NCBI RefSeq assembly: GCF_003334355.1
Contig: NZ_QOWP01000021.1
Length of the DNA stretch: 64,000 bases
Direction: 5' to 3' (one strand)
Source: Escherichia coli
GTDB lineage: Bacteria > Pseudomonadota > Gammaproteobacteria > Enterobacterales > Enterobacteriaceae
Position numbers and translations under genes: made by a program. The notes beneath the pieces were generated by a model that did not search any database, had not been told where the DNA came from, and saw only the letters and a list, made by a program, of their open reading frames with translations. Each line of letters opens with the position of its first letter. Positions within the stretch are counted from its first letter, which is position 1. Below are positions 46,794 through 47,171 of the stretch, piece after piece.

Positions 46794-46950
46794 ACGCCTT
46801 TTCCCTGGCTGGCCTGAAGGCGTATGAGTGCATATCTATAGCGCATGAAAACGCATGAGTCTCATGCGCCATTTTTGACGCGAAAGCCCTTGTGTGGTGG
46901 CTTCTGAGACGATTTACGGGGTGCATGAAAACCAGTCTGTTAAGCGAAGC

Positions 46951-46974
46951 GGGCAGGCGGGCGGGGCAGCGCAC
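46951..46974. other. Candidate cos site (P2/P4-like GC-rich cohesive end)
   Basis: gggcaggcgggcggggcagcgcac resembles recalled P2/P4 cos GGCGAGGCGGGGAAAGCAC and lies where P4 cos is expected. Confidence 0.4.
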
Positions 46975-47171
46975 GCTGTGTATGGTCAAAGTAACTTTTA
47001 ACTTTCAATGAGTACCTGATTGAAAGAATCGTTTATCACGTTAAAGCGATAACAATGATTTTAAGCAGCGAGTGTGGTGTAAGTATCATTGTCGAGTAAA
47101 AATGTTGCAAGCTATTGAAATAAGTATATATTGCAAATGATGAGGAAAATAAAATATGCAAGGACCTACTC

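Follow-up and report, generated by a model that had tools for sequence, protein, structure and literature searches.

What is the stretch of DNA that lies between the last late gene of an Escherichia coli P4-like satellite and its defence cargo, a packaging site, an operator of the cargo, or both? A first-pass annotation of the 64-kb stretch of DNA analysed here (hereafter the window) had pointed to a GC-rich tract and to a neighbouring palindrome in this interval, and had proposed that they may act as a packaging signal and/or as a regulatory site. We examined this proposal by profile searches, by alignment with known cos regions and by comparison with related satellites and phages.

A P4-like satellite next to ssrA

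The window contains a P4-like satellite of about 12.2 kb, spanning about 40.3-52.55 kb and adjoining ssrA, in which the primase, the C4 immunity RNA, sid-psu-delta, the cos region, a Hachiman hamAB cargo and int follow one another (Table 1). Two direct repeats of 23 nt, at 40306 and 52529, are 12,223 bp apart and lie beside the tmRNA, about 110 bp from its 3' end. All the satellite genes examined (sid, psu, delta, int, primase and others) appear intact, as does the immunity RNA. The cargo was identified by PADLOC (HamA1, E = 1.7e-135; HamB1, E = 0), in agreement with the RefSeq annotation of the identical locus, which is found with that same annotation in E. coli strain 190. Between hamB and int, a 152-aa open reading frame on the minus strand (50790-51248), without PADLOC match and annotated as hypothetical in RefSeq, may be an extra cargo gene. 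In the window, the satellite int is followed by the tmRNA and smpB (52478-53721), whereas in strain 190 (L003), whose cos region is 100% identical to that of the window, a second integrase and prophage genes come after int instead. This suggests that tandem elements occur at ssrA in some strains.

The genome of P4 (NC_001609; 11,624 bp) has the order sid-delta-psu-cos-(gop, beta, cII)-int, and thus differs from the window, where psu precedes delta. In both elements, the interval of interest follows the late operon and precedes an accessory hotspot and int. Since the late (sid/psu/delta) operon comes before it and the cargo and int after it, we regarded this interval as the site equivalent to P4 cos.

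Table 1. Features of the satellite and of its cos region, in window coordinates.
Feature	Position	Strand	Description
Primase-helicase	40552-42936	-	Gene call
C4 immunity RNA and isrK	43690-43923		RNA family match
Sid-, Psu- and Ogr/Delta-family genes	45136-46746	+	Gene calls and family matches
Late-operon (sid-psu-delta) intrinsic terminator	46768-46793	+	8-bp GC-rich stem and T6
Conserved block	46797-46814	+	CCTTTTCCCTGGCTGGCC, between the delta terminator and the repeats
YGCAT array	46829-46856	+	TGCAT at 46829, CGCAT at 46842, CGCAT at 46852
Palindrome	46852-46868	none	Left arm is the third direct repeat; right arm (46861-46868) is an inverted copy
Spacer between array and core	46869-46921	none	Length conserved, sequence not
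cos core, 55 bp	46922-46976	+	TGCATGAAAACC-N8-AAGCG-N9-AGGCGGG-N8-CGCACGC
Predicted 19-nt 5' cohesive end	46951-46969	+	GGGCAGGCGGGCGGGGCAG; placed by register
Start of cargo-specific DNA	46977-47171	+	Promoter TTGCAA-16-TATATT at 47105-47132
Hachiman cargo	47172-50697	+	hamA 47172-48113, hamB 48115-50697
Integrase	51278-52477	-	
tmRNA	52662-53024		

The GC-rich tract lies in a diverged cos core

The GC-rich tract reported by the first-pass annotation, gggcaggcgggcggggcagcgcac, is present at 46951-46974. A cos profile was made from six cores of other elements (P2, P4, Fels-2, RE-2010, the Burkholderia phage vB_PL2b and the metagenomic P2-like phage L103) and run with nhmmer against both strands of the 64-kb window. 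It gave a single match, ungapped, at 46919-46977 (E = 3.4e-9), the next-best match in the window having an E value of 1. By the measure of this profile, the resemblance of the tract, taken as part of a cos core, is far beyond chance. For the alignment with known sites, the genome ends of P2 and of P4 were joined (P4 junction 11624/1). Ungapped similarity was found with P2, P4, Fels-2, RE-2010 and the Burkholderia phage. In this alignment the window core reads TGCATGAAAACC-AGTCTGTT-AAGCG-AAGCGGGC-AGGCGGG-CGGGGCAG-CGCACGC and the P2 core TGCATTAAAACC-GCCCCGTG-AAGCG-GGCGGGCG-AGGCGGG-GAAAGCAC-TGCGCGC, and the positions that are invariant in the family (TGCATGAAAACC, AAGCG, AGGCGGG and CGC.CGC) are all kept in the window. 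From TGCAT to CGCACGC, the window sequence measures exactly 55 bp, which is the length of the published "55-bp core" of P2-family cos regions; passages of PMC5694545, PMC5247547 and PMC3931495 credit the 55-bp core of P2-family phages to Ziermann and Calendar (1990). The frame is also that of P4. The window core has nevertheless diverged, being about 65% identical to the P2 core by hand count, whereas the P4 core is nearly identical to that of P2.

When positions 46740-47170 were compared with the phage collection by blastn, zero matches were obtained at E <= 0.01, because the similarity is too short and too diverged. A 73-nt core query at E <= 10 returned weak matches, all of them in P2-like phages (peduoviruses), namely Fels-2, RE-2010, SopEPhi and peduoviruses of Klebsiella, Yersinia and Burkholderia. 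In the three of these phages that were inspected, the similarity was located between gpA and the portal gene, upstream of the latter. No Rfam family matched the cos region. As judged from these alignments, the tract represents a diverged member of a published type of site, the P2/P4-family cos. The first-pass annotation had placed it where P4 cos would be, and the profile match, the ungapped alignment and the gene context bear this out. Its cos interpretation is thus supported, and its interpretation as a whole in part: of the packaging signal and/or regulatory site that it proposed, a packaging role is supported by the homology of the cos core, and the regulation of the cargo promoter is not, for reasons given below.

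Register of the predicted cohesive end

The cosL of P2, annotated at 1-19 of NC_001895, corresponds to core positions 30-48 and, in the window, to 46951-46969. The overhang predicted in this way is identical at 12 of 19 positions to that of P2, GGCGAGGCGGGGAAAGCAC, which is also the overhang of P4. Compared with the tract put forward by the first-pass annotation as resembling the cohesive end, the start is the same (it is the predicted left nick) but the end is not, the right nick being predicted after 46969. An alternative, gapped register exists (GGCG-GGCGGGG...). The ungapped one was preferred because the profile aligns without gaps, because the Burkholderia and L103 cores (AAGCGAAG...AGGCGGGG or AGGCGAGG) bridge both forms gap-free, and because the conserved CGCRCGC then comes directly after the overhang, as in P2 and P4. 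The 19-mer of the gapped register, GGCGGGCGGGGCAGCGCAC, was dropped accordingly; an exact search for it in IMG/VR retrieved copies of the same satellite, three chance matches in GC-rich contigs and nothing else. We also considered a rearrangement relative to the Fels-2 type, in which a duplication of AAGCG would be compensated by the loss of 5 nt. It is not claimed here, since AAGCGAAG... is likewise the reading of the Burkholderia and L103 cores, which align gap-free. Read in the ungapped register, 46951-46969 is the most likely cohesive end.

A repeat array at a fixed distance from the core

The first-pass annotation had also mentioned additional gcatgag-like half-sites around the palindrome. 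These are indeed present (gcgtatgag at 46820, gtgcata at 46828, gcgcatgaa at 46841 and gtgcatgaa at 46921) and prove to be direct YGCAT repeats, located at -93, -80 and -70 relative to the TGCAT at the start of the core, with a degenerate fourth copy, CGTAT, at 46821 (-101). Five YGCATRW motifs occur within 121 bp where 0.14 would be expected (Poisson p ~4e-7), the densest cluster in the window. Equivalent arrays are found at -95/-82/-72 in P4, 186, Fels-2 and RE-2010, at -94/-82/-72 in P2, at -81/-71 in the Burkholderia phage, at -100/-81/-71 in Ralstonia RSA1 and at -101/-91/-80/-70 in L103. The three direct TGCAT repeats of P4, about 70-95 bp upstream of the core, have the same 13- and 10-bp spacing as those of the window. 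In Pseudomonas phiCTX (L160; NC_003278, 35200-35580), the core opens with TGCAG and the repeats at -81 and -71 are also YGCAG, which at the level of these sequences is a co-variation of repeats and core within the family.

To this comparison we added 117 unique cos regions from IMG/VR, retrieved with a pattern that excludes satellites of the window's type (type A, see below); 83 of them adjoin portal/terminase (Q/P) genes. The positions -95, -82 and -72 are occupied by repeats in 82%, 85% and 88% of the 117 regions, percentages that do not count independent events, many of these regions being closely related. Among the regions adjoining portal/terminase genes, the corresponding numbers are 70/83, 74/83 and 77/83. 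The array is kept in 24-25 of the 25 type A satellites. The feature defined from this comparison, direct YGCAT repeats about 70, 80 and 95 bp 5' of the core, is thus found in the window, and the distance from repeats to core is constant within 2 bp across all lineages.

Two further elements precede the array. The terminator of the late operon has a predicted RNA fold of -14.3 kcal/mol (z = -3.3) and is conserved in 25/25 type A satellites; phage 186 has an annotated terminator, t95b, at an equivalent distance from its own cos core. The block between this terminator and the repeats, CCTTTTCCCTGGCTGGCC, is near-invariant in type A and also occurs in type B satellites (those with a core of the Fels-2 type), whose Delta protein is only 60-70% identical. 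At the equivalent place, phage 186 has a partly similar sequence, TTTTTTATGCCACTTTTCC.

Conservation ends where the cargo begins

A 431-bp query covering the region matched 848 E. coli records, and nearly all matches ended at query positions 228-239, corresponding to 46967-46978 of the window. Of 5,426 complete E. coli genomes, 863 (~16%) contained the core, mostly with 90-99% identity. The type A set, to which the window belongs, consists of 25 distinct sequences from IMG/VR that were collected via the Delta protein. Their similarity starts at the delta stop codon and ends with ...CGCRCGC, after which each has a different cargo and no relation to the others. For type A satellites from other genera, identity to the window amounts to 88-92% in the repeats, 87-94% in the spacer and 90-97% in the core, and falls to random level past the core. 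In two of them, from Pantoea and Citrobacter, the delta gene is only 70-71% identical while the core is still 90-97% identical. A type A satellite of E. coli NIPH17_0036 (L112) has a truncated delta and a deletion of the delta terminator region; it retains the cos core and the array downstream of the first repeat, and its cargo is an ABC-three-component-like system. The E. coli match that gave no delta match (H30) proved to be a satellite with a truncated delta.

Type B satellites are 80-84% identical to the window in the repeats and 76-84% in the core, but only 51-60% in the spacer. This drop indicates that two blocks are under constraint and that the spacer between them is fixed in length and free in sequence. 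The spacers of P4, 186, Fels-2, L103 and type B often have a GC-rich dyad of their own, which differs in sequence from one lineage to another (GGCCCGCCAG-TTC-TGGCGGGC in Fels-2, CCGCGCC-ATTCCCG-GCGCGG in P4). The type A spacer has only a weak dyad, AAGCC...GGCTT.

A P4 hotspot located directly beside cos has been described by Rousset et al. (2022, PMC9122126), who also reported cos to be the sole region homologous between P2-like phages and P4-like satellites, a statement echoed in PMC8628076. The window has the same organization as their hotspot, with a conserved cos-proximal sequence followed by a variable defence cassette between psu and int. Its cassette is Hachiman and its last gene before cos is delta instead of psu, and nothing essential differs. 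Because a cos site beside the hotspot has already been published, the instance in the window is largely ordinary.

The palindrome as a probable part of the packaging region

The sequence cgcatgag-t-ctcatgcg is a perfect 8-1-8 palindrome, as the first-pass annotation had stated, and is followed by a T5 run (46872-46876). Perfect palindromes with arms of at least 8 bp and a loop of 0-5 nt number 30 in the window, where Markov-1 simulations give about 7.6, and the palindrome alone is not remarkable with respect to chance. Its perfect form occurs in only some relatives, the left arm being nearly invariant and the right arm variable. The right arm belongs to an inverted copy at -58 that is present in 25/25 type A satellites and in 1/83 phage cos regions. 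Conversely, an inverted copy (RTGCR) is found at -7 in 94% of the 117 regions, including 77 of the 83 phage regions (93%), and in none of the 25 type A satellites; the window lacks this inverted RTGCR/CATGC, a feature defined from the same comparison. P4 has its inverted copy at -7. A perfect inverted repeat of 6-9 bp is formed by the third repeat and the bases immediately preceding the core in 96 of the 117 regions, whereas a control segment reaches a 6-bp inverted match in 3/117, and the flanks of the inverted pair co-vary (GCATGA/TCATGC, TTGCATG/CATGCAA, GCATGATC/GATCATGC, CTGCATGA/TCATGCAG). From the two positions, -58 and -7, we conclude that the palindrome directly joins the two halves of an inverted-repeat pair which, in other lineages, stand on either side of the spacer. 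In type B satellites, the direct repeats persist as TGCATGTCTATGCTGCATGAAAACGCATGA, nearly the sequence of Fels-2, but the adjacent inverted arm and the T-run are missing. We assign the palindrome to the packaging-site module, a second terminator being the other possibility.

An operator controlling the cargo promoter, as proposed by the first-pass annotation, is hardly credible, even though a perfect 8-1-8 palindrome with extra half-sites does resemble the operator of a repressor. Such an operator should adjoin the promoter and be inherited with the cargo, and neither is the case. The only sigma-70-like site detected by a promoter scan is the TTGCAA-16-TATATT of Table 1, which lies beyond the cos core, ~237 bp downstream of the palindrome, and the palindrome block is kept in satellites with unrelated cargos. 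Moreover, helper phages without any such cargo have, in their cos regions, repeats homologous to the left arm and to the remaining half-sites. Since the palindrome lies on the far side of cos from the promoter and is conserved whatever the cargo, it does not qualify as a cargo operator. The cargo leader has inverted repeats of its own, TTGCAAGCTAT/ATATATTGCAA (47105-47136), which covers both boxes (-35 and -10) of the promoter predicted for hamAB, and CTTTCAATGAG/CTGATTGAAAG (47002-47026), about 80 bp upstream of the former. These leader repeats are better candidates for a cargo operator than the palindrome. A second intrinsic terminator, made of the palindrome and its T-run (46841/46852-46876), is a more serious possibility, though one that we find on balance doubtful. 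It would back up the terminator after delta and keep late read-through out of cos and of the cargo, the resemblance to the cos repeats being incidental or secondary. A consensus scan does flag 46852-46868 followed by CCATTTTTGA as terminator-like, the T-run is conserved in type A, and the hairpin has a predicted energy of -8.7 kcal/mol, which pairing of 46862-46869 with 46841-46848 would lower to -13.3 kcal/mol. Changes in the right (3') arm are compatible with G.U pairing on the plus strand in 5 of 17 distinct variants, and two compensatory pairs of the longer helix are seen in one lineage (L039-41). However, 11 of the 17 variants have a C.A mismatch, and the observed covariation score was reached by 17 of 500 shuffles for the long helix and by 236 of 500 for the short one, in an alignment of the hairpin in which 89% of cells are paired and few covarying events occur. 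In addition, the stronger terminator after delta already stands 60 bp upstream, the left arm and its neighbours are at positions conserved in P2 and others, where no transcription runs towards cos, and the direct repeats of type B persist without inverted arm or T-run. A role as second terminator would in any case be compatible with a packaging role of the palindrome.

Comparison with the cos sites of helper phages

The P2-like helpers P2, 186, Fels-2, RE-2010, phiCTX and RSA1 have several traits in common with the window: the motifs TGCATKAAAACC, AAGCG, AGGCGGG and CGCRCGC, aligned without gaps; the array of repeats upstream; and a variable accessory-gene hotspot beside cos. They differ in being phages that encode their own terminase (gpP and gpM). 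In the phage collection, the cores closest to that of the window belong to Burkholderia P2-like phages (78.8% identity) and to Salmonella phages of the Fels-2 type, among them RE-2010 (75%); an identical core was not found in any phage. Searches of INPHARED, of IMG/VR and of a set of one genome per species did not reveal the exact core of the window in a P2-like phage of E. coli or of other enterobacteria. The scan of IMG/VR for the core gave satellites and one GC-rich P2-like phage, and that of one genome per species gave six satellites and about 40 chance matches. The sole phage that shares AAGCGAAGCGGGCAGGCG is the GC-rich metagenomic P2-like phage L103/L108, whose portal and terminase are 54% and 63% identical to those of P2. 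Because type A cos is without the -7 inverted element present in 93% of helper regions, its match to helper terminases remains a candidate one.

A satellite of Pantoea stewartii (IMGVR_UViG_2513237354_000023) has in its cargo slot a portal gene similar to P2 gpQ (L098, about 7393-8406; L115, 7181-8194). The gene is nearly full-length (60% identity over 338 aa), lies immediately to the right of a type A core and, like Q in P2, points towards cos. This arrangement looks like the result of satellite-helper recombination at cos, or like a satellite-encoded portal, and it suggests past recombination with a phage that had a type A-like cos.

These comparisons bear on whether the site could still be used. 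One may suppose a cryptic satellite in which the cos homologue has decayed to a relic that no extant helper terminase can cleave. The lack of a matching helper cos among enterobacterial phages, the missing -7 element and the 12/19 identity to the P2 cohesive end would all fit this view. We nevertheless consider it unlikely, since the core and the repeats are more conserved across genera than the adjacent delta gene, the core is as frequent and as uniform in complete E. coli genomes as reported above, no damage is seen in the immunity RNA or in any of the satellite genes examined, and the family-invariant positions of the core are retained. A speculative proposal, which we also hold to be rather unlikely, is that type A satellites carry a re-wired packaging site, in which the split inverted repeat of P2, P4, 186 and Fels-2 (-72/-7, with a spacer of about 60 bp) would have collapsed into a contiguous palindrome. 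The type A core differs from every enterobacterial helper cos found here.

Proposed packaging site

We consider it probable, from the sequence comparisons, that 46829-46976 is the extended cos (packaging) site of the satellite. Starting from the observed homology, architecture, conservation and cargo boundary, we infer cleavage, the exact positions of the nicks and the binding of proteins to the repeats as follows. The terminase of a P2-like helper would bind the 55-bp core and introduce staggered nicks, leaving the 19-nt cohesive end predicted in Table 1. The YGCAT(GA) array, about 70-100 bp upstream and at a fixed distance from the identical motif that opens the core, would form with this motif the recognition sites for packaging proteins of the helper, most likely the small terminase subunit gpM. 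The repeats are read as terminase recognition sites because recognition by the helper packaging machinery is the only function that P2-like phages and P4-like satellites have in common at this place. In type A the inverted copy stands beside the repeats (-58), and in P2, P4, 186 and Fels-2 beside the core (-7). To the right of the core, the cargo-specific DNA, here Hachiman with its own promoter, corresponds to the published defence hotspot beside cos.

The cos site of lambda is composed of cosQ, cosN and cosB, with R sites for gpNu1 and an IHF site, and its overhang is of 12 nt, compared with 19 nt in P2. It has no sequence similarity to the cos of the window. The likeness is by analogy, a nicking site being flanked on one side by short recognition repeats at fixed spacing, some of them inverted, and the YGCAT repeats may by the same analogy play the part of the R sites of lambda cosB.

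The site in itself matters little, since a cos was expected here and the adjacency of the hotspot has been published. What our analysis adds is the exact junction between conserved and variable DNA, at ~46976/46977, where cargo cassettes are exchanged, and a specific cohesive end, predicted for a lineage of satellites that occurs in about one sixth of complete E. coli genomes. If the re-wiring proposed above were true, type A would constitute a separate class of packaging specificity, with a helper that is still unsequenced or a site tuned to out-compete or escape particular terminases, and the repeat-spacer-core architecture would be the long-missing cosB-like recognition element of P2-family terminases. 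The extended architecture of position-conserved repeats could also guide the design of minimal P2/P4 cosmids and of tests of terminase specificity.
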